DNA of 64,000 bases from Polyangium sp. y55x31 (lineage in GTDB: Bacteria; Myxococcota_A; Polyangia; Polyangiales; Polyangiaceae): assembly GCF_029946505.1 (NCBI RefSeq), contig NZ_JARZHG010000009.1, positions 106,927-170,926 on the forward strand, in the 5' to 3' direction. Shown here piece by piece: positions 647 to 64,000 of the stretch (positions are counted from its first letter, which is position 1; each line of letters starts with the position of its first letter). Position numbers and translations under genes: made by a program. Under the pieces are notes generated by a model, which did no database searches, was not told the DNA's origin, and was given only the letters and a program-made list of their open reading frames with translations.

Positions 647-3600
647 ATGAGGGTCGTTCGTGCGTCGCCCGAGGTGGACGTCGACGTGGAGAGCAGCACG
701 GTGCTGGTCGATCCCGCGCTCGCGCAGACGGAACTCGGCCCGCCTTCGGGGCCCCGGTCGGAGCGTCGCGGCGTACCCCCGTCCCTCGCGGAGCGGTACG
801 AGGACATTCATTTCCTCGGCGAAGGCGGGATGGGGGCCGTCTATCGCGGCCGGGATCCGCGGCTCGGACGCACGGTGGCGCTCAAGCTGCTCAAGGGCAG
901 CGATCCGGAGCTCGGGCGGCGCTTCCTGCAGGAGGCGCGGTCGCAGGCGAAGGTCCAGCACGAGAACGTTTGCCGGATCTACGAGGCCGGAGAGGCCGAC
1001 GGCGAGCCTTTCATCGCAATGCAATACATCGACGGTGAGCCGCTCTCGAAAATGGCTGGACGGCTATCGCTCGAACAACGCGTGAAGCTGATGCGGGAGG
1101 TCTCGGCCGCGGTCCACGAAGCGCACCGGCTCGGGCTCATTCACCGGGACATCAAGCCCGGCAACATCATGGTCGAAAGGAGCGCGGACGGGGACATCAA
1201 GCCCTACGTGATGGATTTTGGTCTGGCGCGGGAGGTCGCGGACAAAGGAGAGACGGTGACGGGGGCGGTGCTGGGGACCCCGGCGTTCATGTCACCGGAG
1301 CAAGCGCAAGGCGACGTACGAGCGCTGGATCGACGCTCGGACGTATATTCGCTCGGCGCGACGCTCTACGACGTCGTCGCGGAGCGGCCGCCGTTCGTCG
1401 CGCCACACACGTGGAAGCTCCTGATGATGGTCGCCTTCGAGGAGGCGCCTGCACTGGGGCAGGTGAAGAAAGGGGTGCCGGCGGATCTCGAGACGATCGT
1501 GATGAAATGCCTGGAGCGAGATCCGCGGCAGCGATACGATTCGGCGCGGGCGCTCGCCGAGGATTTGCAGCGGTTTTTGGACGGAGAGCCGATCCTGGCG
1601 CGGCAGGCGTCGGTGGGGTACGTGCTGTGGAAAAAGGCGCGGAAACACAAGCTCGCGACGGCGGTCTCCGGCGTGCTCCTCGTCGCGGCGCTTGCGCTCG
1701 CCGGCGTGTGGTGGAAGGGGCGGCAGCAGGCGGCAGCCGAGGCGAGGATCGCGCAGGAGCTCGGGGAGCGGGTCAAGGAGATGGAGCTCTTCTTGCGCGC
1801 GGCCTACGAGCTGCCGCTGCACGACGTCGAGCGCGAGCGGGACGTGGTGCGGCGGAAGCTCTCGGCGGTCGAGGAGCGGTTGAAGGAGGCGGGGCGCGTT
1901 GGCGAGGGCCCGGGGCATTACGCGCTCGGGCGGGGATATCTGGCGCTGGGGGATCCGGAAAAGGCGCAGGAGCATCTGGAGAAGGCGGTCTTCGCGGGGT
2001 ATCGATCGCCGGAGCTCGAATACGCGCTGGGGCGGACGCTCGGGGAGCTTTACCGGCGGGCGCTCGCGAAGACCAAGCGGATCACGAACGCGGAGGAGCG
2101 CAAGAAGCGGGAGGCAGAGCTCGCGGCGGCGCTGCGGGATCCGGCGCTCGGGCATTTGAGGGCGGCGTCGGGGGCGGAGATCGAGGCGCCGGCCTACGTG
2201 GAGGGGCTCATCGCGCTGTACGAGGGGAAAAACGAAGAGGCGCAGGCGAAGGCGCGGGAGGCGTTCGAGCAGGCGCCATGGATGTACGAGGCGAAGAAGC
2301 TCGAAGCGGATGCCTTGTTCGCGGAGGGGAGCAAGCACCGGCACGATGCGGCGTTCGACTGGGACAAGATGATGCTGTCGTTTGGCCCGGCGGCCGAGGC
2401 GTACAAGGTCGCGGCGGAGATGGCCGAGAGTGATCCGGAGGTGCATCGGGCGGCGTGTGAGCTGTGGGAAAAGATGGCGCGCGGGACGGAGGCCATCGGC
2501 AAGCGACCGGATCACGAGCTCGACGTGGCCGAGGGTGCGTGCTCCAGAGCGGTGCAGGCGAGCTCGCGTGATGCGGAGGCGCGGGTGCAGCGCGCCCATG
2601 CCATGCATTATCGGTTCTGGGTCGCCAACCAGTCAGGCGCACATTCCCAGAAACTCGAGGCGGCGGCGCTCGAAGCCGTCGAGGAGGCTGTTCGCATTCG
2701 GCCGAACGACGCCTTTGCCCGATATTTGTTGGCGACGACGTTGCAGACGCAGGCGACGGGAAAGTCCTTCCGGGGCGAGCAGGTCGAGACGGGAGAGACC
2801 ATCCGGGCCTACGAGAAGGTGCTGGAGATCGAGCCTCGCTTCACGTGGGCGCTGAACGAGCTCGGGCAGACGTATCTCCTCCAAGCGGAGTTCGATCGAT
2901 TGCATGGGCTGGACCCTCGCCCGTTGCTCGATGGCGCATCGAAGCGATTCGACCAGGCCGTCGCGGTGGATCCGAATTTCACCTTGCCCGTGTTCGGAAA
3001 AATCCGCGCGGCCATTTACCGAGTCGTGTACGAGACCGACCACGGAATCGACGCTCAGGTGAGCCTGTCCACGCTCGCCGACGCCGTCGCGCTGCTCGAA
3101 GAGCGAAAGCTCGGAGGCTTTTTGCCCGTCTACTACGCGGCGAAGTCCGCGCGGGTTCGCGCGGCGTACGAGGACGCGATCGGCCTGGACCCTCGCCCAG
3201 CGATCGAGGCAGGCGTGAAGAAGATCGAGCCCTTCGCGGCGCCGGACACGAATACGGTGTATCCCCTGATGGAGCTCGCCGAGTTCCGGCTGGTCGAATT
3301 CGAGTACATGCTCTCCGCGGGGCTCGAACCTCTCCCCGACCTCCGGCCCCTGCGGGACGCCGTGAAGAGAGCCTCCGAGAAAGACGCGTCGGGGATCGAC
3401 CTTCAGGACCTCACGGCGAGGATGGATCTCCTCGCGATCCTCGCGAAGGTCGAGAAGGGTCAGGCCGACGAGCGAGCGTTCGACGATGCGGCGGCGGTCC
3501 TGGAGCCCGTGATCGCCACGGAGCGAAACGACCCTCGGCCCTACCAGACCCTCGCCCGCATTCACGCAGCAAAGGCAAGATGGCTCGAAGCGCACCGGAA

Positions 3601-3850
3601 GGCGCCGGACACGGTCGTCGCCGTGGGGCTCGACATGGCGAAAAAAGCGCGCGCCATTCATCCACACAACGCGAGGACGTTCTCGACGACGGGAGAGCTC
3701 CTCCTCGTGCGGGCGAAAGCTTCCCGCGGGGAGGATCGAAAGAAAGCTGCGCGCGCGGCGGGCGAGGCGTTCGCGGCAGCGATCCGAGAAAACCCGCGGC
3801 TCGCGGCGGCGCATCAGGCGAACATTCAGGAGGCGAAGGGAATGGAGTGA
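647..3850 (+). CDS. Ser/Thr protein kinase with TM segment and C-terminal TPR-like helical repeat region
   Basis: Hanks kinase motifs are present: GEGGMGAVY, VALK, HRDIKPGNIM, DFG and SPEQ. A TM helix LATAVSGVLLVAALALAGVWW follows, then a ~700-aa helical repeat region. Confidence 0.85.
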   Translation: MRVVRASPEVDVDVESSTVLVDPALAQTELGPPSGPRSERRGVPPSLAERYEDIHFLGEGGMGAVYRGRDPRLGRTVALKLLKGSDPELGRRFLQEARSQAKVQHENVCRIYEAGEADGEPFIAMQYIDGEPLSKMAGRLSLEQRVKLMREVSAAVHEAHRLGLIHRDIKPGNIMVERSADGDIKPYVMDFGLAREVADKGETVTGAVLGTPAFMSPEQAQGDVRALDRRSDVYSLGATLYDVVAERPPFVAPHTWKLLMMVAFEEAPALGQVKKGVPADLETIVMKCLERDPRQRYDSARALAEDLQRFLDGEPILARQASVGYVLWKKARKHKLATAVSGVLLVAALALAGVWWKGRQQAAAEARIAQELGERVKEMELFLRAAYELPLHDVERERDVVRRKLSAVEERLKEAGRVGEGPGHYALGRGYLALGDPEKAQEHLEKAVFAGYRSPELEYALGRTLGELYRRALAKTKRITNAEERKKREAELAAALRDPALGHLRAASGAEIEAPAYVEGLIALYEGKNEEAQAKAREAFEQAPWMYEAKKLEADALFAEGSKHRHDAAFDWDKMMLSFGPAAEAYKVAAEMAESDPEVHRAACELWEKMARGTEAIGKRPDHELDVAEGACSRAVQASSRDAEARVQRAHAMHYRFWVANQSGAHSQKLEAAALEAVEEAVRIRPNDAFARYLLATTLQTQATGKSFRGEQVETGETIRAYEKVLEIEPRFTWALNELGQTYLLQAEFDRLHGLDPRPLLDGASKRFDQAVAVDPNFTLPVFGKIRAAIYRVVYETDHGIDAQVSLSTLADAVALLEERKLGGFLPVYYAAKSARVRAAYEDAIGLDPRPAIEAGVKKIEPFAAPDTNTVYPLMELAEFRLVEFEYMLSAGLEPLPDLRPLRDAVKRASEKDASGIDLQDLTARMDLLAILAKVEKGQADERAFDDAAAVLEPVIATERNDPRPYQTLARIHAAKARWLEAHRKAPDTVVAVGLDMAKKARAIHPHNARTFSTTGELLLVRAKASRGEDRKKAARAAGEAFAAAIRENPRLAAAHQANIQEAKGME

Positions 3851-3892
3851 GCGCGTGTCCGGCAGCGCAGGGACGTCGGACGGAGCGGGCGC

Positions 3893-4819
3893 TCAGGGGC
3901 AAGTCGCGTTGCTCGCCTTCAAGTAGCTGTGAATCGCGTAGGAGCGGTTCGAGCAGCCCTCGAACGTCGAATTCAACGGCTCACTGCAGAAGGCATCGAA
4001 GGTGCTGCAGGTTCCCATGTAGCTGAAGCCGCAGGGCGTATACGTCACGTCACATGCCCGAAAAGTCGCCCCCTCGGCAGAGCTGCAGAACGTCACGTCG
4101 CTACAGATGTACGCATTGAACGCGGGAGAGCTGTCGGTGTTGCTACCCAGCGGCATCGTAGAATCGAACATATTGCCCCACACCGTCGACTCCGGCACCG
4201 TGTAGGGGTAGGCCTCGCTGGCTCGATAGGTGATCTCCGGGTGAGCGCCTCCGAGCAGGATGTCGATCGTCGCGCCGTAGCGGTTGGTGCGCGAAAGGAC
4301 GCAGGCCGTGACCCACCTCTTTTCATCCGTCGTGAGCGCGCGCGTCCTCCAGTCCGGCGCAAGACCGATCTCGCCGTGGTACTGCTGGAACACGGGCACG
4401 GAGACCCCCCCACCCGTCATGTACCCGACAATATGGCCCGCGTCCCCCACGGTGGTCCCCTCGGCCAAGGCGCAACCGATGAGCTTCTCCAGAAACTCGA
4501 CCCTGGCGCCTGCCCACTCACCCGCCGCGCTGGGCGATGGCATGTCGGGCATGCTGGGCAGGACGCCGGAAGGGGCCAGCGCGGCATTACCGATCACACG
4601 GACGGTCCGCTGCACGCCATGATTATGGGCAACCCGATACCGCAAGCCGTTGTTGGTCCCCGGATCGCCACCCGTACCGAGCTCGGCCTCCCCGAGCTCC
4701 TCCTCCTCGGGATCCCAACCGGAGTCCACGGGGTCGGCCATGCAACCCAGGCCATAGAGGCTCATGGCAATGAACACGAACGGCGAAGCACAACGAAGCA
4801 GCGTAGTTCCAGGGTTCAT
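3893..4819 (-). CDS. secreted Cys-rich lipoprotein, hypothetical
   Basis: Signal peptide with lipobox (LYGLGC) and a Cys-rich C-terminus. RBS GGAG lies upstream of the ATG at 4819. A sigma-54-type promoter lies just upstream. Confidence 0.6.
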   Translation of the reverse strand: MNPGTTLLRCASPFVFIAMSLYGLGCMADPVDSGWDPEEEELGEAELGTGGDPGTNNGLRYRVAHNHGVQRTVRVIGNAALAPSGVLPSMPDMPSPSAAGEWAGARVEFLEKLIGCALAEGTTVGDAGHIVGYMTGGGVSVPVFQQYHGEIGLAPDWRTRALTTDEKRWVTACVLSRTNRYGATIDILLGGAHPEITYRASEAYPYTVPESTVWGNMFDSTMPLGSNTDSSPAFNAYICSDVTFCSSAEGATFRACDVTYTPCGFSYMGTCSTFDAFCSEPLNSTFEGCSNRSYAIHSYLKASNATCP

Positions 4820-4855
4820 GAGAAGGGTCTCCTGTCGAAGGTGACGATCACGGAC

Positions 4856-4874
4856 ATTGCACCCGTCGTGCCAG
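4856..4874 (-). promoter_or_regulatory. sigma-54 (-24/-12) promoter candidate for the lipoprotein gene
   Basis: The minus strand reads cTGGCACGacggGTGCAat, with GG-N10-GC spacing and a perfect TGGCACG -24 box. The predicted TSS is ~28 nt upstream of the ATG at 4819. Confidence 0.6.
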
Positions 4875-4893
4875 AGGTCGTCCGGAGGTGATT

Positions 4894-5006
4894 CAGGCCC
4901 GAAAGGCGCGTGAAAGCTGCGTGCACACGAGCCTCGCCCGGACGCGGGGGCCCGAGCGAGGGTCGGCGCGCGTAACGTAGGTACGCGCGTGCGTCATCCG
5001 TGAACG
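4894..5006. repeat. copy 1 of ~115-bp duplicated upstream element, with inner palindrome cgcgcgta-N7-tacgcgcg at 4967-4989
   Basis: About 90% identical to 6943-7058. It lies 20-130 bp upstream of the sigma-54 -24 box of gene 3893..4819. Confidence 0.8.
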
Positions 5007-5060
5007 CTCAGGGGCAGACGGCGTCGTTCATGCGCCCGAAAGAGCGCACGCCGCAGGACC

Positions 5061-6851
5061 TCAGTAGGTCTGTCTGACGAAGACGCCTTGCGTTGCAAAG
5101 CCGACCACGTCCTGCGTTCCATCACCATTGATATCCGCCATCATGCGCGGGTGCATGTCCACGCGCCATCCGAAATCATAACCGAAGCCTTCTACCAGGT
5201 GGCTCGGCAGCTCGAATGAGCTCCCGGTCGAGCGCGAGATATGAACGCCGTTGCCCGCAAAGCCGACCACGTCAGCTTTCCCGTCATTGTCCACATCCGC
5301 CATCATGCGCGGGTGCTGCTCCACGCGCCATCCGACTTGATTGTACCCGAAGTTGCTGACCCAGAGCTGGGGCGTCGTGAAGGAGCTCCCCGTCGAGGTA
5401 GAGACGACCACGCCGTTGTCACCGAAGGCGACGATGTCCTGCTTCCCGTCGCCGTTGACATCGGCCGTCATCCGCGGATGCATGTCCACGCGGTAGCCGT
5501 GGTTGTAACCATAATCTCCGACCCAAAGCGATGGCGTCGAGAAGGAGCTTCCCGTCGAGAGCGCCACGTACACGCCGTTGTTGGCAAAGACGACGACGTC
5601 TTGTTTCCCATCGTTGTTGACGTCGGCCATCATGCGCGGGTGCTGGTCGATGCGATAGCCATGATTGTAGCCGTAATTGGCGAGCCAGAGCGACGGCGCC
5701 GTAAACGAACTTCCCGTCGAGAGCGAGACCACCACGCCATTGTCCCCGAAAGCGACGACGTCCGGCTTCCCATCGTTGTTGACATCCGCCATCATGCGCG
5801 GGTGCTTGTCCACGCGGTAGCCCTGATTCCAGCCATAATCGCCGACCCAGAGTGACGGCGCCGTGAACGAGCTTCCCGTCGAGAGCGAGACCAGCACGCC
5901 TGCATCCCCAAAGCCGACGACGTCCGGCTTCCCATCGTTGTTGACATCCGCCATCATCCGCTCGTGATTCTCGGTGCGCCAGCCGTGGTTGTAATTGAAT
6001 TGGTCCACCCATAGTTCCGCAGCCATGAAGCCGGTCCCGGTGGACCTGGACACGAGCGTCCCCGCATCGCCGAATGCGACGATATCCTGCTTCCCATCGT
6101 TGTTGACATCCGCCATCATACGCGGGTGCTTGTCCACGCGCCATCCTTGAACATAGCCGTACTCCGTTATCCATCGCGGAGTGCCGTACATCTTGATCGC
6201 GCCCTGGATGTCGCTCTCGCTGAGCTTGCCGTTGCCGTTCCACACCGGATTGCAGTAATTCATCACCGAATCCAGATCCCACAGGTTCAGCGTAAGGTCA
6301 CCGTCGCTCCCCTGCTCCTCATCGCACCACGACGGGGTGTCGGGCCGATTCTGCTCGTGAGCGAATCCGAGCGCGTGCCCGAACTCGTGCACCGCGATTG
6401 CTTCGATGCAGAACCGGCGCGAGTTCTGACAGTCCGGGGACCAGTTCTGGAAGGTAAAGTTCAATACCATACCATCCGTTTCGCCGTCGAGATCGGTGCC
6501 GAGGCCATCTGTGTGTGGGCCTTCATCGGAGATCCGGATGCGAATTCCATTCGACGAGCTGGTGCATGTACCCCAGCCATTGAAATCCACCCGCGTGTGG
6601 GCGTCCCACGACGCGAGGACGGCTTGTCGGACCCAGTCTCTCTCGGCTTGAGGCGCCGCGCTGGGGTTTTCCCAGCAGACCTGGACGGACTCTCCGCTCC
6701 ACAACTTCGACGAGGCTACATAAAGCGGGGCCACGTCCGTCTGAACGTTTTCCTCGGCGGAGGGTTCGGCCGGGCCAGAGCAGCCGGTCGACGCGTAGGA
6801 AATGGCAAGGACCGACGCGATGGCAATCGCCATCGAATGATGATGTTTCAT
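5061..6851 (-). CDS. secreted astacin-family zinc metalloprotease fused to an 8-blade FG-GAP-like calcium-binding beta-propeller; lipoprotein signal
   Basis: The astacin signature HEFGHALGFAHEQNRPD is followed by the Met-turn SVMNY. There are 8 tandem ~47-aa repeats (HPRMMADVNNDGKxDVVxFGDxGVxVSLSTGSSF). The start is reassigned to ATG 6851 (MKHHHSMAIAIASVLAISYASTGC lipobox) with an upstream GGAG. Confidence 0.8.
   Translation of the reverse strand: MKHHHSMAIAIASVLAISYASTGCSGPAEPSAEENVQTDVAPLYVASSKLWSGESVQVCWENPSAAPQAERDWVRQAVLASWDAHTRVDFNGWGTCTSSSNGIRIRISDEGPHTDGLGTDLDGETDGMVLNFTFQNWSPDCQNSRRFCIEAIAVHEFGHALGFAHEQNRPDTPSWCDEEQGSDGDLTLNLWDLDSVMNYCNPVWNGNGKLSESDIQGAIKMYGTPRWITEYGYVQGWRVDKHPRMMADVNNDGKQDIVAFGDAGTLVSRSTGTGFMAAELWVDQFNYNHGWRTENHERMMADVNNDGKPDVVGFGDAGVLVSLSTGSSFTAPSLWVGDYGWNQGYRVDKHPRMMADVNNDGKPDVVAFGDNGVVVSLSTGSSFTAPSLWLANYGYNHGYRIDQHPRMMADVNNDGKQDVVVFANNGVYVALSTGSSFSTPSLWVGDYGYNHGYRVDMHPRMTADVNGDGKQDIVAFGDNGVVVSTSTGSSFTTPQLWVSNFGYNQVGWRVEQHPRMMADVDNDGKADVVGFAGNGVHISRSTGSSFELPSHLVEGFGYDFGWRVDMHPRMMADINGDGTQDVVGFATQGVFVRQTY
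5064..6197. repeat. 8 tandem ~141-bp coding repeats (propeller blades) inside the protease gene
   Basis: Near-identical peptide repeats are visible in the translation. Confidence 0.8.
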
Positions 6852-6913
6852 GGGTGTCGAAGCTCCAGCGGGATACTTGTTGGGCCGCGTTGCTCGCGGT
6901 GCGGATAGCCGCA

Positions 6914-6931
6914 GAGCAACCCGCATGCCGA
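6914..6931 (-). promoter_or_regulatory. sigma-54 (-24/-12) promoter candidate for the astacin-propeller gene
   Basis: The minus strand reads tCGGCATGcgggTTGCTc, with GG-N10-GC spacing and a TTGCT -12 box. It lies ~54 nt upstream of the ATG at 6851. Confidence 0.5.
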
Positions 6932-6942
6932 CACGCGAGAGG

Positions 6943-7058
6943 CAGGCCCGAAAGGCACGTGAAAGCTGCGTGCACACGAGCCTCGCTCGGACGCGGGCCC
7001 CGCGCGAGGCTCGGCGCGCGTAACGTAGGTACGCGCGTGCGTCACCCGTGTACGCGGA
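6943..7058. repeat. copy 2 of ~115-bp duplicated upstream element, with inner palindrome at 7015-7037
   Basis: About 90% identical to 4894-5006. It lies between the EBP stop (7070) and the protease promoter. Confidence 0.8.
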
Positions 7059-7069
7059 GCCCGGGGCGC

Positions 7070-8788
7070 TCAGGCCTCGTCGTCCCCCAGCTCCCGAAAG
7101 GGCCCGCCGTCCTCCCCGAGCGCCTTGCAGAGCGCCTCCACCTTCTCCAGCTCACGCCGCAGCATCTTGTGGTGATTGCGCGCCTGCACCTGCGCGCCCT
7201 TCCCAAAAAGCCGGAACGCCGCGTCCTTGCTGCCGAGCCGCTCCACCGCCGTGCCGAGCACGATGCCGCGGAATGCGTCCGAGAGCTCCAGGTCGAGCAC
7301 GAGGCCCTTTCCCTGCTGCCGCTCGGCCTCTTCCACGATCGCGCCCGCCGCGACGCGCAGGTCGTCGAGGGTCGACCTGCGCCCGCTCCCCCGCTCGTAG
7401 CTCAGGGCGCGCGCGAAATGCTTTTCCTCCAGCAAGATCTCGAGCCCTGCCTCGCCCTGCGTCATGAGCGCGAGCGCGTACGCCCGGCGGACGACGTTGT
7501 CGAGCTGCCGCAAATTGCCCGGCCAGCCGTGCTCGCCGAGCAGCCGCTCCGCGCCGGCCGCGATCCGCGCTTCCCCGCCCGGGACCGATTCTCGATGGCG
7601 CCGCGTGGCCATGAAGCGCGCCCATTCCGCGATCTCGTCCCGGCGCTCGTCGAGCGGGGGGATCTGCACCGGGAGCACGTTGATCCTATAATAAAGATCC
7701 TCCCGAAATCGACCGGCCTTCACCTGATCGTACAGGTCGACGTTGCTCCCCACGATGAAACGTACGTTCGCCTGCTGCTCGCGCGCGCCGTCCCCGATCG
7801 GGCGATACGTACGCGATTCGAGGAGCTGGAGCAATCCAGCCTGCGCCTTCAGCGAGAGTTTGTCGATCTCGTCGATGAACAACGTCCCCTTGAAGGCCCG
7901 CGTGATGCACCCGGGCGTGTCGCGCACCGCGCCCGTGAACGCGCCCTTTTTCCAGCCGAAGAGCTCCGCCATTTGCAGCTCCTCGGGCACGGCGATGAGG
8001 TCGAGGACCTCGAAGGGCGCCCCACGCCGGACCGATCGCGCGTGGCACCAGCGCGCGAGGCGCGATTTGCCTGCGCCCGTGGGACCGCCGATGAGCAGGG
8101 TCTCCTCCTGCTGCGCGAAGACGTGGAGCATGTCGATCAAGCCCGCCATGCTCTGGCCCATGACGGGCAAGAGGTCGTCGGTCGCGCCGGTCGCCGCGGG
8201 CCGCGGCGGGAGGGTCGCGAGGTAAGGCGCCGCGAGGTCGGCGAGGAGCTCCAGCGGTTCGTGAATGGCCGGAAAAATGAAATCGTCGCCGACGGCCCTC
8301 GGGCACCCCGCCTCGACCGTGGCCATTCCCTCGATCGCGCCGTGCAGGGTGCGCAGCGGGATCGCGTAGAGGTGGCTCGTGTCGCGGCTCGTCAGCCGAA
8401 GCACGCTGTCCTGACCGGAGAATCCGCCCTCCTGGAACACGTTCGCGGATTCGTTTCGCCACGTCCATACGCGGCTCAGCGGGACGTCGATCGCAATGGG
8501 GCATGCGCGCGTGACGACCCAGCGCCACGCGCTCACGGAGGGCAAATAGTTGATGATCGGCTCGCCGCCGCGCTGCGTATCGTCGAGGAGGACCAATCGC
8601 CGGTAGCCGTCGCCGGGCCGCCAGTGCGCCATGCCGCGGAGGATCTTGCCGCGGCCGGCGAAGCTGCTCTCCGCGAGCGCCGCGAGCGCCGCGTCGAGCA
8701 TCGCGCGCAACAAGGTGTGCGCGGCGTCCTCGAAGGTCCTCGCCTTCCGGAGCCGGTCCACAAAAGCAAGGATTTCCCGCTGGTTCAT
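7070..8788 (-). CDS. sigma-54-dependent transcriptional activator (bEBP) with N-terminal GAF-like sensory domain and C-terminal HTH
   Basis: The AAA+ sigma-54 interaction domain carries the GAFTGA signature, Walker A GGPTGAGKS and Walker B FIDEID. The C-terminus is Fis-type. The start is taken at ATG 8788 (MNQREILAF...), 9 nt after the kinase stop. Confidence 0.85.
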   Translation of the reverse strand: MNQREILAFVDRLRKARTFEDAAHTLLRAMLDAALAALAESSFAGRGKILRGMAHWRPGDGYRRLVLLDDTQRGGEPIINYLPSVSAWRWVVTRACPIAIDVPLSRVWTWRNESANVFQEGGFSGQDSVLRLTSRDTSHLYAIPLRTLHGAIEGMATVEAGCPRAVGDDFIFPAIHEPLELLADLAAPYLATLPPRPAATGATDDLLPVMGQSMAGLIDMLHVFAQQEETLLIGGPTGAGKSRLARWCHARSVRRGAPFEVLDLIAVPEELQMAELFGWKKGAFTGAVRDTPGCITRAFKGTLFIDEIDKLSLKAQAGLLQLLESRTYRPIGDGAREQQANVRFIVGSNVDLYDQVKAGRFREDLYYRINVLPVQIPPLDERRDEIAEWARFMATRRHRESVPGGEARIAAGAERLLGEHGWPGNLRQLDNVVRRAYALALMTQGEAGLEILLEEKHFARALSYERGSGRRSTLDDLRVAAGAIVEEAERQQGKGLVLDLELSDAFRGIVLGTAVERLGSKDAAFRLFGKGAQVQARNHHKMLRRELEKVEALCKALGEDGGPFRELGDDEA

Positions 8789-8796
8789 GCCGGTCC

Positions 8797-9933
8797 TTAG
8801 CGCCCAAGGAGCCCGAGGGCCATCACGATTGCCGCCACCAGGACGACGGCGATCCCGATCCACACAGGCCATCGCCGGGGGCGCGACGAGACCGTCGCCT
8901 CCGTCGGCGCCCGTTCCTCGGCCACCGCGCGCTCGATCATGGCGTACGAACCGCTCTCCACGTGGCTCATGCCCACCTCGCTGGGCGCGTTCCTGCGGCC
9001 GACGAGCATGTCCTCCCGCAGCGCCATGCCTCCCGGCAAGAGGGGCTTCATCGCTTCGAGCATCGCCGCAGCGCTGGAGAACCGTTCTTCACGCGAAAGC
9101 CGTGACGCCCGTTCGAGGAGCGCCTCCACGTCGAGGCCGACCCCCGGCACGACCTCGCGCAACGTGGGCATCGGTTTCGTCGCGATATGGTTGAGCAGCA
9201 AGGGGAACGATTTGAGGTCCGCATGCGGCGGCTTTCCGGTGAGCATCGCGAACAGCGTCACCGCCAGCGAAAACAGGTCGCTGCGTGCGTCGATGCCTTT
9301 CGCGCCGTCGAGCTGCTCCGGCGACATGTAAAGCGGCGAGCCGAGGAGCTGCCCCGTCTCGGTCATGGATAGCTGCGGCGCCGAGAGGGCCGAAGGCGCG
9401 GCGCTCGTGGAAGAATCCGGCGGGAGGCGCCGGATCTTGGCGAGGCCAAAATCGAGAATCTTGACCACGATGGCGCCGCCTTCCCGCCGCGCGAGAAAGA
9501 GATTGCCGGGCTTGATGTCCCGATGCACCACGCCCGCCGCATGCGCCGCCGCGAGCCCCGCGCAAACCTGCGCCGCGATCCGCAAAGCCACGTCGACCGG
9601 CAAGGGGCCGACCCTGTCGAGGAGGGATTGCAGGTCCTCCCCGCGGAGCAGTTCCATGACGAGGAACGGGGCGTCCGTGGCGGGATCCCGCTCGATGTCG
9701 AGCACCTGGGCGATGTGCTCCGACTCGAGCGAACCCGCGATGCGCGCCTCCTGGTCGAAGCGCAAAAGCTCGGGATCCCGCGGGTCGAGGGCGCTCCCCC
9801 GCAGCGACTTGATCGCCACGCGCCGGCCGGTTCGCAGGTTCTTCGCGGCGTAGACCGTGCCTATCGCCCCCTCCCCGAGGACGGCGGAGAGCTCGTATTT
9901 GTCGCCGATTTTCCCCTGAACCCTGGTCGCCAA
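8797..9933 (-). CDS. Ser/Thr protein kinase with C-terminal TM anchor
   Basis: Motifs GEGAIGTVY, VAIK, HRDIKPGNLFL, DFG and SPEQ are present. The C-terminus has the TM helix VWIGIAVVLVAAIVMALGLL. The annotated start is TTG at 9933, and no in-frame ATG is nearby. Confidence 0.75.
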   Translation of the reverse strand: MATRVQGKIGDKYELSAVLGEGAIGTVYAAKNLRTGRRVAIKSLRGSALDPRDPELLRFDQEARIAGSLESEHIAQVLDIERDPATDAPFLVMELLRGEDLQSLLDRVGPLPVDVALRIAAQVCAGLAAAHAAGVVHRDIKPGNLFLARREGGAIVVKILDFGLAKIRRLPPDSSTSAAPSALSAPQLSMTETGQLLGSPLYMSPEQLDGAKGIDARSDLFSLAVTLFAMLTGKPPHADLKSFPLLLNHIATKPMPTLREVVPGVGLDVEALLERASRLSREERFSSAAAMLEAMKPLLPGGMALREDMLVGRRNAPSEVGMSHVESGSYAMIERAVAEERAPTEATVSSRPRRWPVWIGIAVVLVAAIVMALGLLGR

Positions 9934-17911: not shown

Positions 17912-19941
17912 GCTTCGCCACGATCGCCGCGCTGCTCGTGGCGCTGCTCGTCGCCGCGCCGGTCGCGGCCCACCTGCTCCGGCGAAGGCAAGCCGAGGAG
18001 CAACCCTTCCCGCCCGCGAAGCTCGTGCCGCCGACGAAGCCTCAGGCCCGGCGGCGGAGCATGCTGGAGGATCGCTCGCTCTTCGCGGTGCGAGCGCTCA
18101 GCGTGGTTCTGCTCGCGGTGCTCGGCGCGACGCCGTTCGTGCGGTGCGCGCGGCTCGGTCTGTCGCGGAAGGACGGGGCATCGGTGGCGCTCGCGATCGT
18201 GATCGACGATTCGCTGAGCATGCGCGCGCCGCTGGAAGGCGGGACGGGCGCGCCGGGGAAACGGACGAAGTTCGATCGGGCGCTCGCATCGGCGCGGGAG
18301 CTCGCGACGGGCCTGCGCAGCGGCGACGCGGTGGCCGTGGTCCTCGGGGGCGCGCCCGCGCGCGTGGCGCTCGCGTCCACGACGAACATGGCGGCCGTGA
18401 CGGGCGCGCTCGACACGATCGAGCCGTCGGATCGCGCGACGGATCTGGACGGCGCGCTGGCCCTGGCGCGGGAGCTTTTGCGCAGCGTGCCGCACGCCGA
18501 TCGGCGGGTGGTTCTTCTGAGCGATCTCGCCGATGGAACGCCGAACGCCGCGCCCCTCGGCGGCGGCTCGGACACGACGCTCTGGGTGCCGCTGCCGGAG
18601 CTCGAAGCCAAGGGCAGCGACTGCGCGGTGACGCGCGCGGATCTGCGCTCGGGCAAGGTGCGGGCGCGGGTCGTGTGCAGCCCCGAGGGGCGCGCCGCGG
18701 GCGAGGGCGCGGCGGTGATCTCGGCCTCGGCGGGTCGGGCGGTGGAGCTGCGCGCCGAGGGGAAGGTGCTCGCGTCGGCGCCGCTCGGGGCCGCAGTCCG
18801 CGCCGAGGAGGTCGCGCTCGACGTGCCGGACGGCGCGCCGGAGGAGCTCGTGGTCGGGCTCTCGCCGGGCGACGCGATCCTGGAGGACGACGAGGCGCCG
18901 GTCGTGCCGGCGGGCGGAGCGCTGCCGATCGCGGTCGTGGTGGACGTGGCCTCGACACACGTGGCCACGGGCGGGCCGCCGCCGATCGAGCAGGCCCTCG
19001 CGGCGATGCATCTCGACGCGGAGGTGCGGCCGCTTCCCGCGGTGCCGGACCACGCGGACGAGCTCGCCGCGTTCGCCGGGCTCATCGTGGACGACGTGCC
19101 GGGGTTCACGCCGGAAGGGCGGCGCTCGCTTTCGGCGTGGGTCGAGCGCGGGGGCGTGCTGCTCTTGACGTTCGGGCCACGCGCGGCGACGGCCCCGCTC
19201 GGAGCCGGGTTCGATCCGCTCATGCCGGGCGTGGTGCGCTGGGGGCCGAGCCCGTCCCAGGGCGCGGATCCGGCGAGCGCGGTGTTTTTCGGGCCGAGCG
19301 CGGAGGGCCTCAACAAGCTGTCGCCCGACGGGCGCGCGTCGTTCGACCCGGCGGCCGTGACGAACGCGGACCTGCTCGCGCGCTGGGACGACGGCGCGCC
19401 GCTGCTCTTGCGGCGCTCGCTCGGCCGCGGCGCGGTCTTCGCGCTGTCGCTGCCGCTCAGCGTGGACGAGAGCGACTTCGTCCTCAGGCCGGCCTTCCTC
19501 GCGCTGCTCGACCGCTTCGTGGGCACGGCGCGGGCGCGGGGCGGGGCGCGGCAGATCGACGTCGGCGACGCGTTCACGTTCGACGGGTTCAAGGACGTGT
19601 CGATCGAGCGATTGCCGGTCCGCGCGGGCGAGGCGCGGCGGCCGATCCCGGTCGTGGAGCAGGACGGACGCCGCCGCGCCGTGGCGCCGCTCCGGGGTCG
19701 GTACGAGGTGCGCCTCGACGGCGAGCGCGCGATCCGCGTCGCGACGGTCCCCGAGCGCGAGATCGATCTGCGCCCGCGGCGCGTGATCGACGCGGCGCGT
19801 GCCGAGGCGCTCGGCGGCGTCGTGCCCTCGATTGACGCGTCGCCGTACGTCGCGCTCGGTCTGCTCGGCCTCGTCGTGCTGGAGTTGTTCCTGCGCGCGG
19901 TGGGGCAAAAGCGCGAGGGTTCGGCGTCCACGACGGCCTGA
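17908..19941 (+). CDS. BatA-like N-terminal TM + vWA domain protein
   Basis: N-terminal TM helices are followed by a vWA fold with a degenerate MIDAS motif (IVIDDSLSM). There is a C-terminal TM helix. Confidence 0.75.
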   Translation: MSFATIAALLVALLVAAPVAAHLLRRRQAEEQPFPPAKLVPPTKPQARRRSMLEDRSLFAVRALSVVLLAVLGATPFVRCARLGLSRKDGASVALAIVIDDSLSMRAPLEGGTGAPGKRTKFDRALASARELATGLRSGDAVAVVLGGAPARVALASTTNMAAVTGALDTIEPSDRATDLDGALALARELLRSVPHADRRVVLLSDLADGTPNAAPLGGGSDTTLWVPLPELEAKGSDCAVTRADLRSGKVRARVVCSPEGRAAGEGAAVISASAGRAVELRAEGKVLASAPLGAAVRAEEVALDVPDGAPEELVVGLSPGDAILEDDEAPVVPAGGALPIAVVVDVASTHVATGGPPPIEQALAAMHLDAEVRPLPAVPDHADELAAFAGLIVDDVPGFTPEGRRSLSAWVERGGVLLLTFGPRAATAPLGAGFDPLMPGVVRWGPSPSQGADPASAVFFGPSAEGLNKLSPDGRASFDPAAVTNADLLARWDDGAPLLLRRSLGRGAVFALSLPLSVDESDFVLRPAFLALLDRFVGTARARGGARQIDVGDAFTFDGFKDVSIERLPVRAGEARRPIPVVEQDGRRRAVAPLRGRYEVRLDGERAIRVATVPEREIDLRPRRVIDAARAEALGGVVPSIDASPYVALGLLGLVVLELFLRAVGQKREGSASTTA

Positions 19942-22133: not shown

Positions 22134-23513
22134 CTAGCGACGGCGACGGCGACGCGCGACCGAGAGCAACATCGCGCCGCCCAGGAGCCCGAGCGCCGCG
22201 GGCATGCTCGCCTCGCCGCCGACGGCGCAGCTCGCGTTGCTCTTCGAGCCGAGGTTCGGGTCGTCCTCGCCCACGCCGAAGCCATTGTCCCAGGGGTTGA
22301 CGTCGGGGTCGGTATCCGGCCCGGGGCCCGGATCGAAGCACCAATCCGGCGGCGGCGGGCACGCGGGCGGCGTGCCGACGGCCGTCGTGACCTGCAGCCA
22401 TCGCTCGACGTACGACTGGTCGTTCGACGCGCCCAGCGTGAGGTCGGCCTTCAGCGCCTCGCGCGAGAGCTCGGCGTGGATGCGCGTCACCCAGAGGCTG
22501 TTTTCGGGGATCGCGCCGAAGAGCGCGTCGAGGTCGGCGGCGCACTCGTCGAGCGCGCTCGGGCCCATCGGATCGCCGCCGTAGCCGCTGTTCTCCGGAT
22601 CGAATTCGGCCGTGTACTTCAGGCTGTCCTCGATCCAGAAGCGCGAGAGCGGCTCGCCCGCCTCGACGAGCCACGCCTTGCCGCTCGACGCGTCGAAGCT
22701 CTGCTGCTTGAGGTCCTTGTAGTTGCTCGACTGCGTGTCCCAGTTCCACACGAGATCCGCGGGCTTGATCTGGAAGCTCGGGAAGTTCGTCGGCTCGTAG
22801 CGGCCCTCGGCGAGGACCCAGAGCGTGATCGGCGTGATCGCGCCCGTGCCCGCGGCGACCATGCGCAGCGGCAGGACCGGGACCGCGCCCGGCGACGTGA
22901 CACGCACGGGGCGCATCGAGTTGATGCCCTGGCCGGGCACGAGCTTGAGGGCGAGGAAGTCGAAGCCCTCGTTCACGTACGCGTCGACGATCGGCTTGAT
23001 GTCGGGCGGGATGTTGTAGCCGTTCGAGAGCAGCCAGTTCGCGAGCGCGTTCGGATCCTGCGACGAGAGCTGCACGGTCGCGTAGGGACCGACGACCTCC
23101 TCGGCGATGACCTCGACGCCGGCGCCGCCCCCGCCGCCCGTGCCCGAGTTGTCGCCGCCCGCGCTCGGCGCACCGACGCAGCCCGACGGAAGGCAGTTGA
23201 TCGAGGGCGAGAGGACCGAGACCTGCGTGGCCTGTTCGAGCGCGCCGAAGACCGCGTCGGACGAGAGCCCGATGTCGACCTGCCCCTTGATCGGCAGGAG
23301 CCATGCGAACGAGGAAGGATCCCCGGCGTAGGTGATTTGATCCCAAAGGGTCGTCCGATCGTTTGAGATCGAAAGAACCATGCGGTGGCCCGTGACCTGC
23401 GTGGTCTCCTGCTGGGTGATGAAACAGCCGCCGCACGCATTCGAATCGGTCGCGTAGAGGGCAGGCACCACGAGAAAGGGCAAGGACAAGGCGAAGGCGC
23501 GAAGGAGCTTCAT
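22134..23513 (-). CDS. DUF2330-like secreted protein with MYXO-CTERM-type C-terminal sorting tail
   Basis: Start is ATG 23513 (MKLLRAFALSLPFLVVPALYA signal). The C-terminus ...CAVGGEASMPAALGLLGGAMLLSVARRRRRR has a Cys, a hydrophobic helix and an Arg cluster. Confidence 0.7.
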   Translation of the reverse strand: MKLLRAFALSLPFLVVPALYATDSNACGGCFITQQETTQVTGHRMVLSISNDRTTLWDQITYAGDPSSFAWLLPIKGQVDIGLSSDAVFGALEQATQVSVLSPSINCLPSGCVGAPSAGGDNSGTGGGGGAGVEVIAEEVVGPYATVQLSSQDPNALANWLLSNGYNIPPDIKPIVDAYVNEGFDFLALKLVPGQGINSMRPVRVTSPGAVPVLPLRMVAAGTGAITPITLWVLAEGRYEPTNFPSFQIKPADLVWNWDTQSSNYKDLKQQSFDASSGKAWLVEAGEPLSRFWIEDSLKYTAEFDPENSGYGGDPMGPSALDECAADLDALFGAIPENSLWVTRIHAELSREALKADLTLGASNDQSYVERWLQVTTAVGTPPACPPPPDWCFDPGPGPDTDPDVNPWDNGFGVGEDDPNLGSKSNASCAVGGEASMPAALGLLGGAMLLSVARRRRRR

Positions 23514-63155: not shown

Positions 63156-64000
63156 ATGCTCGAGACATTCCGCACGAGACAGGTCGAAGTCACCACAGCG
63201 CTACGCGAGCTGCTCACGATCGCCGGCCGCGTCGGCGCGCGATCGCTCTCGCGCCGCCTCGGCAGCGACGTGGTCGACAAACTTTCGGCCGACCGCTTCC
63301 ACCTCGTCGTCGTCGGCGAGTTCAACCACGGCAAGACGACCTTCGTGAACGCGCTGCTCGGCGCCGAGGTCCTGCCCGTCGGCGTGACCCCGACGACGGC
63401 CGTCATCCACCACCTCGAATACGCGTCCGAGCCTCGCGCGGAGCTCGTGCGGGCCTCGGGCGAGCGCACGACGATGCCGTTCGAGGAGGTGCGCAAGTTC
63501 GCCGTCGGCCAGGAAAAAGGCTCCGAGAGCGCGACGAGCGAGGTGAAGCACCTCGAGGTCTTCTATCCGGCGGAGCTGCTCCGCGAGCGCATCGTGCTCG
63601 TCGACACGCCAGGCGTGAACGACCTCTCGCTCCAGCGCGCGGACATCACCTACAGCTACATCCCGCGCTCGGACGCCGTGCTCTTCCTCATCGACGCGGG
63701 CCAGCCGCTCAAGGAGAGCGAGCGCGTCTTCCTCAACGAGAAGCTGCTCGGCCAGTCGCGCGACAAGATCATCTTCGTCGTCACCAAGAAGGACATCTGG
63801 AGCGACGACGAGGAGGAAGAGGCGCTCGCGTACATCCGCACCGAGCTCGCGAAGCTCATCCGCACGCCCGTGGTCTTCGCGGTGAGCGCGAAGCGCGCGG
63901 CCGAAGGTCATCCCGAGGAGAGCGGCATGCCGGAGCTGCTCTCGCACCTGACGAAATTCCTCGCCGAGGAGCGAGGCCGCATCCTGCTCGACAACGCGCT
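63156..64000 (+). CDS. bacterial dynamin-like GTPase, 3'-truncated by the window end
   Basis: AGGAG RBS. The sequence reads MLETFRTRQ...VVVGEFNHGKTTFVNALLG (P-loop) and ...LVDTPGVND. There is no stop before the window end. Confidence 0.7.
   Translation, partial: MLETFRTRQVEVTTALRELLTIAGRVGARSLSRRLGSDVVDKLSADRFHLVVVGEFNHGKTTFVNALLGAEVLPVGVTPTTAVIHHLEYASEPRAELVRASGERTTMPFEEVRKFAVGQEKGSESATSEVKHLEVFYPAELLRERIVLVDTPGVNDLSLQRADITYSYIPRSDAVLFLIDAGQPLKESERVFLNEKLLGQSRDKIIFVVTKKDIWSDDEEEEALAYIRTELAKLIRTPVVFAVSAKRAAEGHPEESGMPELLSHLTKFLAEERGRILLDNA

Follow-up and report, generated by a model that had tools for sequence, protein, structure and literature searches.

The NtrC sites at glnAp2 are an example of the upstream activating sequences (UASs, or enhancers) that serve sigma-54-dependent transcription. 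Activators of the NtrC class bind such sequences at a distance of at least 100 bp upstream of the sigma-54 promoter, and activation involves looping of the DNA (PMC4641369). In Myxococcus xanthus, the activator MrpB binds two sites, UAS1 and UAS2, upstream of mrpC (PMC10701913). Here we describe a locus of Polyangium sp. y55x31 that lies within a 64,000-nucleotide (nt) stretch of contig NZ_JARZHG010000009.1 (hereafter the window; G+C content 68%) and carries two near-identical segments of approximately 114 nt upstream of two tandem minus-strand genes. These segments probably represent a duplicated UAS for sigma-54-dependent transcription by the activator encoded beside them. The locus resembles the NtrC and MrpB systems in its arrayed dyad sites, located approximately 80–160 bp upstream of a -24 GG/-12 GC promoter motif, and in the proximity of its activator: a gene for an AAA+ protein with a GAFTGA motif adjoins the putative target, and looping would be expected.

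On the minus strand, the order of features is Ser/Thr kinase, sigma-54-dependent activator, copy 2 of the element, gene 2, copy 1, and gene 1. Copy 1 (4894–5007) is located between the gene 2 stop codon (5061) and the gene 1 ATG (4819), and copy 2 (6943–7058) between the activator stop codon (7070) and the gene 2 ATG (6851), so that both are non-coding, as an earlier note on this DNA had stated. A longer open reading frame (5061..6977) that would overlap copy 2 was rejected as an artefact because the lipoprotein signal peptide of gene 2 begins at 6851. The copies start 54 nt (copy 1) and 12 nt (copy 2) past the preceding stop codon. Their distances from the downstream ATG, described earlier as the same, are similar but not equal (75 and 92 nt for copies 1 and 2, respectively). 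In a blastn alignment of 4894–5007 with 6943–7055, 106 of 114 positions are identical (93%, one 1-nt gap, E = 1e-43), in good agreement with the earlier description of a pair of about 115 bp with roughly 90% identity. No third copy was found within the window: the next blastn matches, all of them in coding DNA, score no more than 27 bits. Weak matches at 18628–18679 (in G+C-rich coding DNA) and 63428–63464 were dismissed as chance-level (E = 0.2–7.5).

Each copy contains two inverted repeats. The first, an 8+8 palindrome (CGCGCGTA-N7-TACGCGCG) to which the earlier note had drawn attention, is indeed perfect in both copies (4967–4989 and 7015–7037), but by itself it is statistically unremarkable: the window contains one to eight perfect 8+8 inverted repeats per spacer length. 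What is non-random is the 114-nt duplication together with its conservation across species. The second, which the earlier note does not mention, has 14-nt arms and is imperfect in copy 1 (4928–4965), has one mismatch in copy 2 (6977–7013), and is a perfect 14+14 repeat in copy 2 of Polyangium jinanense. It is not conserved outside the clade formed by this strain, P. jinanense, and Polyangium sp. 6x1.

Downstream of each copy is a sigma-54-type promoter motif, identified by scanning for the consensus TGGCACG-N4-TTGCW with up to two mismatches. Motif P1 (TGGCACGACGGGTGCA; 4858–4873, minus strand) has one mismatch, with its GG at 4872–4871 and its GC at 4860–4859; motif P2 (CGGCATGCGGGTTGCT; 6915–6930, minus strand) has two mismatches, with its GG at 6929–6928 and its GC at 6917–6916. 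In gene orientation they follow copies 1 and 2 by 22 and 14 nt, respectively, and the spacing between GG and GC is correct in both. Transcription would be predicted to start near 4847 from P1 (28 nt before the gene 1 ATG) and near 6904 from P2 (53 nt before the gene 2 ATG). Relative to these starts, the palindrome region would be centred near -135 in copy 1 and near -125 in copy 2. Two of the six consensus matches in the window fall, in the correct orientation, in the two gaps of 75–92 nt between element and gene; at a density of six per 128 kb of strand, approximately 0.004 motifs per gap would be expected by chance. Both motifs persist in two related loci that carry the element, L004 (Polyangium sp. 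6x1) and L005 (P. jinanense): P1 is kept and P2 is identical. More broadly, a sigma-54 motif precedes the gene 1 homologue in each of the loci L001 to L008 and in the paralogous locus L011. No sigma-70-like promoter was found in 3800–9000. Because it stands upstream of a -24/-12 motif and beside an activator gene, the element looks like an enhancer rather than a sigma-70-type operator. A sigma-54 site read by eye within the element itself (GTGCACGCAGCTTTCA) was rejected, having neither the GG nor the GC.

Comparison with more distant relatives indicates which part of the element is ancestral. The gene 1 upstream regions of Polyangium fumosum, P. spumosum, and P. aurulentum contain no homologue of the 114-nt element by blastn or nhmmer, and neither do other loci searched in this way; the short motif alone is present, and these regions nonetheless align with an array of GTACGC-type half-sites. 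In sense orientation, the array reads (G/A)TGACGC-acgc-GCGTACC-tacgt-TACGCGCG in the window, where copy 1 (4967–4997, minus strand) begins with aTGACGC and copy 2 (7015–7045, minus strand) with GTGACGC; it includes the palindrome and forms a putative activator-binding site. A related motif, GGTACGC-N4/5-GCGTACC-N5-GACGC, was found in five more distant loci, 78–155 bp upstream of sigma-54 promoter motifs. Its sense-strand forms are GGTACGC-agcc-GCGTACC-tcagg-GACGC in P. fumosum, GGTACGC-gctc-GCGTACC-ccacg-GACAC in P. spumosum, GGTACGC-agccg-GCGTACG-ccagg-CACGC in P. aurulentum, and (read by eye) GGACGC-aggct-GCGTACC-caggg-GACGC in Polyangium sp. 15x6; in the metagenome contig L006, a degenerate first half-site (A) is followed by GCGTCC-cgct-GGTACGC. 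The dyad GGTACGC-N4-GCGTACC has a single perfect match in 21.7 kb in L001 (P. fumosum) and likewise in L002. In L008, a GTACGC array is not clearly recognisable. Searching for the dyad with a loose regular expression proved too permissive, with 2.3 matches expected per window. Elsewhere in the window, at 22358–22376, there is a perfect palindrome of similar form, GGCACGC-N5-GCGTGCC.

In terms of this array, the palindrome singled out by the earlier note consists of half-sites two and three with an extension of CG repeats. The sequence conserved in distant species, the half-site array, overlaps that palindrome but is in a different register. Variable positions are unevenly distributed within the element. 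Across six copies (two each from this strain, P. jinanense, and sp. 6x1), two of 33 columns vary in the array versus 21 of 85 elsewhere (Fisher p = 0.02), and the remaining 70 nt or so are clade-specific and more variable. Copy 2 of P. jinanense (L005, about 5540–5560) has lost 26 nt (TTTCACGTGCCTTTCGGGCCTGCC) from its 3' third. Most likely, the working site occupies only about 30 nt in each copy, and both the 3' third and the second inverted repeat represent spacer DNA carried along in the duplication.

The distance from the centre of the array to the -24 GG, derived from alignment and motif coordinates, is 102.5 bp for copy 2 and about 111.5–112 bp for copy 1. Elsewhere it is 77.5 bp in three loci and 133.5 and 154.5 bp in two others; the deletion in P. 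jinanense copy 2 brings its site to 78.5 bp from the promoter, close to the value in P. fumosum, L006, and sp. 15x6.

The distribution of the element outside the window was assessed with a 21-mer, GCGCGTAACGTAGGTACGCGC, that is unchanged in every known copy. Exact matches were sought in one genome per species (185,579 species), a scan that strongly diverged copies would escape. Four were found, two each in Polyangium sp. 6x1 and P. jinanense SDU13, spaced approximately 2 kb apart in both. The two loci are orthologous to the window (90.6% and 94% DNA identity) and have the same gene order: activator, copy 2, gene 2, copy 1, gene 1. In a metagenome collection of 241 million records there was one match, at the end of contig L010 beside the same kinase–activator pair, and this is a further orthologous copy of copy 2. 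A profile hidden Markov model of the six copies (nhmmer) detected nothing further in the window or in the compared loci.

These results bear on whether the element belongs to a dispersed family of repeats. Like repetitive extragenic palindromic sequences (REP), bacterial interspersed mosaic elements (BIME), and miniature inverted-repeat transposable elements (MITE), it is short, G+C-rich, palindrome-bearing, and intergenic. REP or MITE families comprise tens to hundreds of dispersed copies, whereas this element is present as two copies per genome at one locus. Dozens of copies scattered in unrelated contexts, which the earlier note had named as the observation that would speak against a specific regulatory site, were looked for with the 21-mer, and copies were found at this locus only. 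With two copies in 64 kb and neither terminal inverted repeats nor target-site duplications visible, we regard membership in such a family as extremely improbable.

The gene next to copy 2 encodes a sigma-54-dependent activator, or bacterial enhancer-binding protein (7070–8788, minus strand; 572 amino acids [aa]), whose start was placed at 8788 because its orthologues are 572 aa long. It matches Pfam Sigma54_activat (PF00158, E = 1e-47) and contains GAFTGA, and the best PDB matches of its AAA+ domain are NtrC-class AAA+ domains (E about 1e-46). Its N-terminal 200 aa and C-terminal 95 aa, approximately, match no Pfam family; unlike typical members of the class, the protein has no receiver, GAF, PAS, or FHA domain by Pfam, and its C-terminus does not match HTH_8. 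Conservation of both terminal domains extends from Polyangium to Myxococcus, with 55% identity over the protein as a whole. The C-terminal region is helical (five helices in an AlphaFold model with a predicted local distance difference test score [pLDDT] of 93.6) and nearly invariant across the Polyangiaceae, with an invariant RNHHK opening the last helix. Such conservation fits a conserved DNA target, and the position and conservation of this domain make DNA binding by it plausible.

Upstream of the activator gene is a gene for a Ser/Thr protein kinase (8797–9933, minus strand; Pfam Pkinase, E = 8e-40). Since its stop codon lies 8 nt before the activator ATG, the two probably form one operon. 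The activator is paired with a Ser/Thr kinase and not, as in NtrC-class systems, with a histidine kinase. Further differences from known enhancers of the class lie in the DNA: here there are three GTACGC-type half-sites about one helical turn apart, and the putative enhancer is present as two copies of approximately 114 nt for two tandem promoters, while P. fumosum has a single array between two divergent sigma-54 motifs. To our knowledge, the GTACGC-type half-site does not match that of any characterised activator. FHA-domain sigma-54 activators linked to Ser/Thr kinases were reportedly described in M. xanthus by Jelsbak, Givskov and Kaiser in 2005. The Polyangium activator is likewise genetically coupled to eukaryotic-like Ser/Thr kinases, one probably co-transcribed with it and the other, a TPR kinase, bounding the locus. 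It differs in having no FHA domain by Pfam, and the gene neighbourhood is not conserved around its M. xanthus homologue (55% identity).

The element could instead be a true protein-binding module for another regulator, a repressor or second activator, that recognises CGCGCGTA-N7-TACGCGCG or the repeat with 14-nt arms, in which case the adjacent activator would act from solution or from another site. Some sigma-54 activators, such as Helicobacter FlgR, have no DNA-binding domain; the C-terminal domain of the activator described here could not be shown to be a helix-turn-helix, and the element does carry two separate dyads. At mrpC in M. xanthus, the MrpB sites overlap with those of a second regulator, MrpC (PMC10701913). 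We nevertheless consider a different regulator unlikely: the activator gene adjoins the motif in seven of eight orthologous loci (L001 to L007), the block contains no further conserved regulator gene, and the near-invariant helical domain of about 95 aa is located where this class carries its DNA-binding domain.

From these sequence comparisons we infer that the activator binds the array, that transcription starts from P1 and P2, and that the input comes from the kinase; the earlier proposal of a shared cis-regulatory module gains support from the comparative evidence. According to the mechanism that we propose, the activator, probably controlled by its co-transcribed Ser/Thr kinase, would bind as dimers to the half-site arrays of both copies. 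Its AAA+ ring would then assemble, the intervening DNA of approximately 100 bp would loop, and ATP hydrolysis would open sigma-54 RNA polymerase at P1 and P2, so that the two tandem lipoprotein genes, gene 1 and gene 2, would be switched on from separate promoters.

Several observations weigh against an activator-bound enhancer. The sigma-54 consensus is not enriched across the window (six matches found, 7.5 expected), and therefore the argument from sigma-54 motifs rests on their position and conservation. In this clade, the left half-site has degenerated from its ancestral form (GTGACGC or ATGACGC versus GGTACGC), and copy 1 fails to match GGTACGC-N4-GCGTACC even when two mismatches are allowed. 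The distance between site and promoter is not conserved in helical phase (78, 102.5, 112, 133.5, and 154.5 bp). Finally, paralogous copies are about as similar to one another (89–94% identity) as orthologous copies are (90–95%), so that in these three closely related species the preservation of all 114 nt says little and is in itself no proof of constraint.

The duplication itself would go back to the ancestor shared by this strain, P. jinanense, and sp. 6x1, in which gene 2 took up its place between gene 1 and the activator gene. The next-closest species (P. fumosum, P. spumosum, and P. aurulentum) lack gene 2 at this locus; moreover, gene 2 has a lower G+C content than its flanks (60–62% in window 5001–6500 versus 66–71%) and is bracketed by the copies, which are direct repeats 2048 nt apart; for these reasons the second copy probably arose with the placement of gene 2, giving this gene an enhancer of its own. 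The low G+C content is consistent with later acquisition. The same observations would also be expected of a functionless scar, left by the insertion of gene 2 through homologous (Campbell-type) recombination or through local duplication, as would the clade-specific and variable nature of about 70 of the 114 nt, the 26-nt loss in P. jinanense copy 2, and the similarity of paralogous and orthologous identities. That the copies are a scar and nothing else, alike through a recent common origin alone, we judge to have a low probability: the array predates the duplication, since species that lack gene 2 have it in the equivalent position, ahead of a sigma-54 motif, and it is significantly less variable than the rest of the element. 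The scar explanation is largely compatible with a duplicated enhancer, because it accounts for the origin of the second copy but not for the retention of the core.

A role at the RNA level was also considered, in which the element would serve the upstream gene as a structured 3' untranslated region, a terminator, or a stabilising hairpin, or would form a leader for the gene downstream. The copies begin within 12–54 nt of a stop codon, have two G+C-rich hairpins each, and on the sense strand fold slightly more stably than shuffled sequences (z = -2.1 and -2.2). On the opposite strand z is about -0.8, and folding is unconvincing for both strands. An Rfam scan of 3500–9000 at E ≤ 10 gave two chance-level matches, both elsewhere. 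Among the six copies, there is one compensatory change in the 22 pairs of the two hairpins, a value reached by 274 of 500 shuffles, many pairs are broken, and substitutions in the second inverted repeat break pairs about as often as they keep them. No terminator-like site was found at either copy: there is no U-tract after the hairpins, the sequence that follows being GUGUGCACGC. Moreover, because the predicted sigma-54 starts lie downstream of the element, it would not be part of the gene 1 or gene 2 leader. An RNA function therefore appears quite improbable.

Related loci were retrieved via orthologues of the activator, which is 89% identical in P. fumosum, 84% in P. spumosum, and 79% in P. 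aurulentum. They share a conserved frame, bounded at one end by the small kinase and the activator and at the other end by the TPR kinase, and the genes between these vary. The kinase–activator pair is kept in six of them (L001, L002, L003, and L006, as well as L005 and L010, for which DNA alignment was used); two loci, L007 and L008, have the small kinase downstream of the activator. A gene of approximately 280–320 aa is always present in the frame, and a protein search matches those of P. fumosum (P0130) and sp. 15x6 (P0133) to gene 1. Among the variable genes are one for an M4 peptidase, present in P. fumosum, and one for an RCC1-repeat protein, present in P. aurulentum and L006. Sigma-54 motifs also precede the M4 peptidase gene and the P. 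aurulentum RCC1-repeat gene; that upstream of the L006 RCC1-repeat gene is weaker, three mismatches from the consensus. In P. fumosum (L001, 14698–14852), the M4 peptidase is annotated as starting directly beside the sigma-54 motif, a start that is probably 46 codons too far upstream, because the lipoprotein signal peptide (MINRTILPFLFAGVALSAGC) begins 46 codons later.

Gene 1 (3893–4819, minus strand) encodes a predicted cysteine-rich lipoprotein of 308 aa, with the lipobox LYGLGC and conserved cysteines. It matches no Pfam or NCBIfam family, and its AlphaFold model is poor (pLDDT 57) and unfit for a fold search. The protein is 100% identical to a hypothetical protein from Polyangium sp. y55x31. 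Seventeen homologues were found, and all of the named ones are from Polyangium or Polyangiaceae. Gene 2 (5061–6851, minus strand) encodes a predicted lipoprotein of 596 aa with a signal peptide, an M10/astacin-like zinc-protease domain, and seven FG-GAP repeats (Pfam); the repeats of this protease/beta-propeller-like protein are encoded by seven tandem units of 162 nt that are 61–79% identical (window 5043–6147). The TPR Ser/Thr kinase (1067 aa; 647–3850, plus strand) converges on the locus from the other side. A sigma-54-like motif, TGGTAAGCTTCTTGCT, is present at 601–616 on the plus strand, 31 nt upstream of the TPR kinase ATG (647); its equivalent was not found at the orthologous place in P. 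fumosum.

A gene 1 paralogue (48% identity) is located in a metagenome-assembled genome of Polyangium sp. (L011, 9080–9290), between a Ser/Thr kinase and a TPR-repeat gene that is probably a TPR kinase cut by the end of the contig. This paralogue has a sigma-54 motif of its own, CGGCACGGCCCCTGCAA, and a different upstream palindrome, GGCCTGC...GCAGGCC. The arrangement suggests a family of parallel modules with different enhancers. The y55x31 genome also encodes a gene 1 paralogue, P0128. In M. xanthus (L009), the activator homologue has neither a kinase neighbour nor a gene 1 homologue and shows no synteny with the Polyangium locus, and it was set aside as uninformative for the enhancer. A sigma-54 motif, TGGCACGGGACGCGCA (7815–7830), lies approximately 170 nt upstream of the start of this homologue and may reflect autoregulation or control by another activator.

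As a tentative extension, the kinase, the activator, the GTACGC-type enhancer, the cysteine-rich lipoprotein of approximately 300 aa, and the TPR kinase might together constitute an undescribed signalling module, found throughout the Polyangiaceae, that captures secreted cargo by enhancer copying. In this strain the cargo would be the M10/FG-GAP protease, whereas P. fumosum and P. aurulentum would have captured the M4 protease and the RCC1-repeat protein, respectively. The 114-nt repeats would be the footprint of one such capture. We advance this as a possibility that is more doubtful than the duplicated enhancer.

An activator-bound enhancer upstream of a sigma-54 promoter is a textbook principle of which this locus would be a new example, and for that reason its value lies in annotation and evolutionary study and is not conceptual. 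If our reading of the element as a duplicated enhancer is correct, it would provide a testable regulon for an uncharacterised myxobacterial sigma-54 activator, comprising a candidate motif, two promoters, and two secreted targets, and it would link this activator to Ser/Thr-kinase signalling. It would also represent a natural case of regulatory rewiring, in which a newly placed protease gene came to stand behind a second copy of its neighbour's existing enhancer, in a genus where the sister species P. fumosum has one enhancer between two divergent promoters. Enhancer duplication within an uncharacterised kinase-linked activator module would thus be of modest evolutionary interest.

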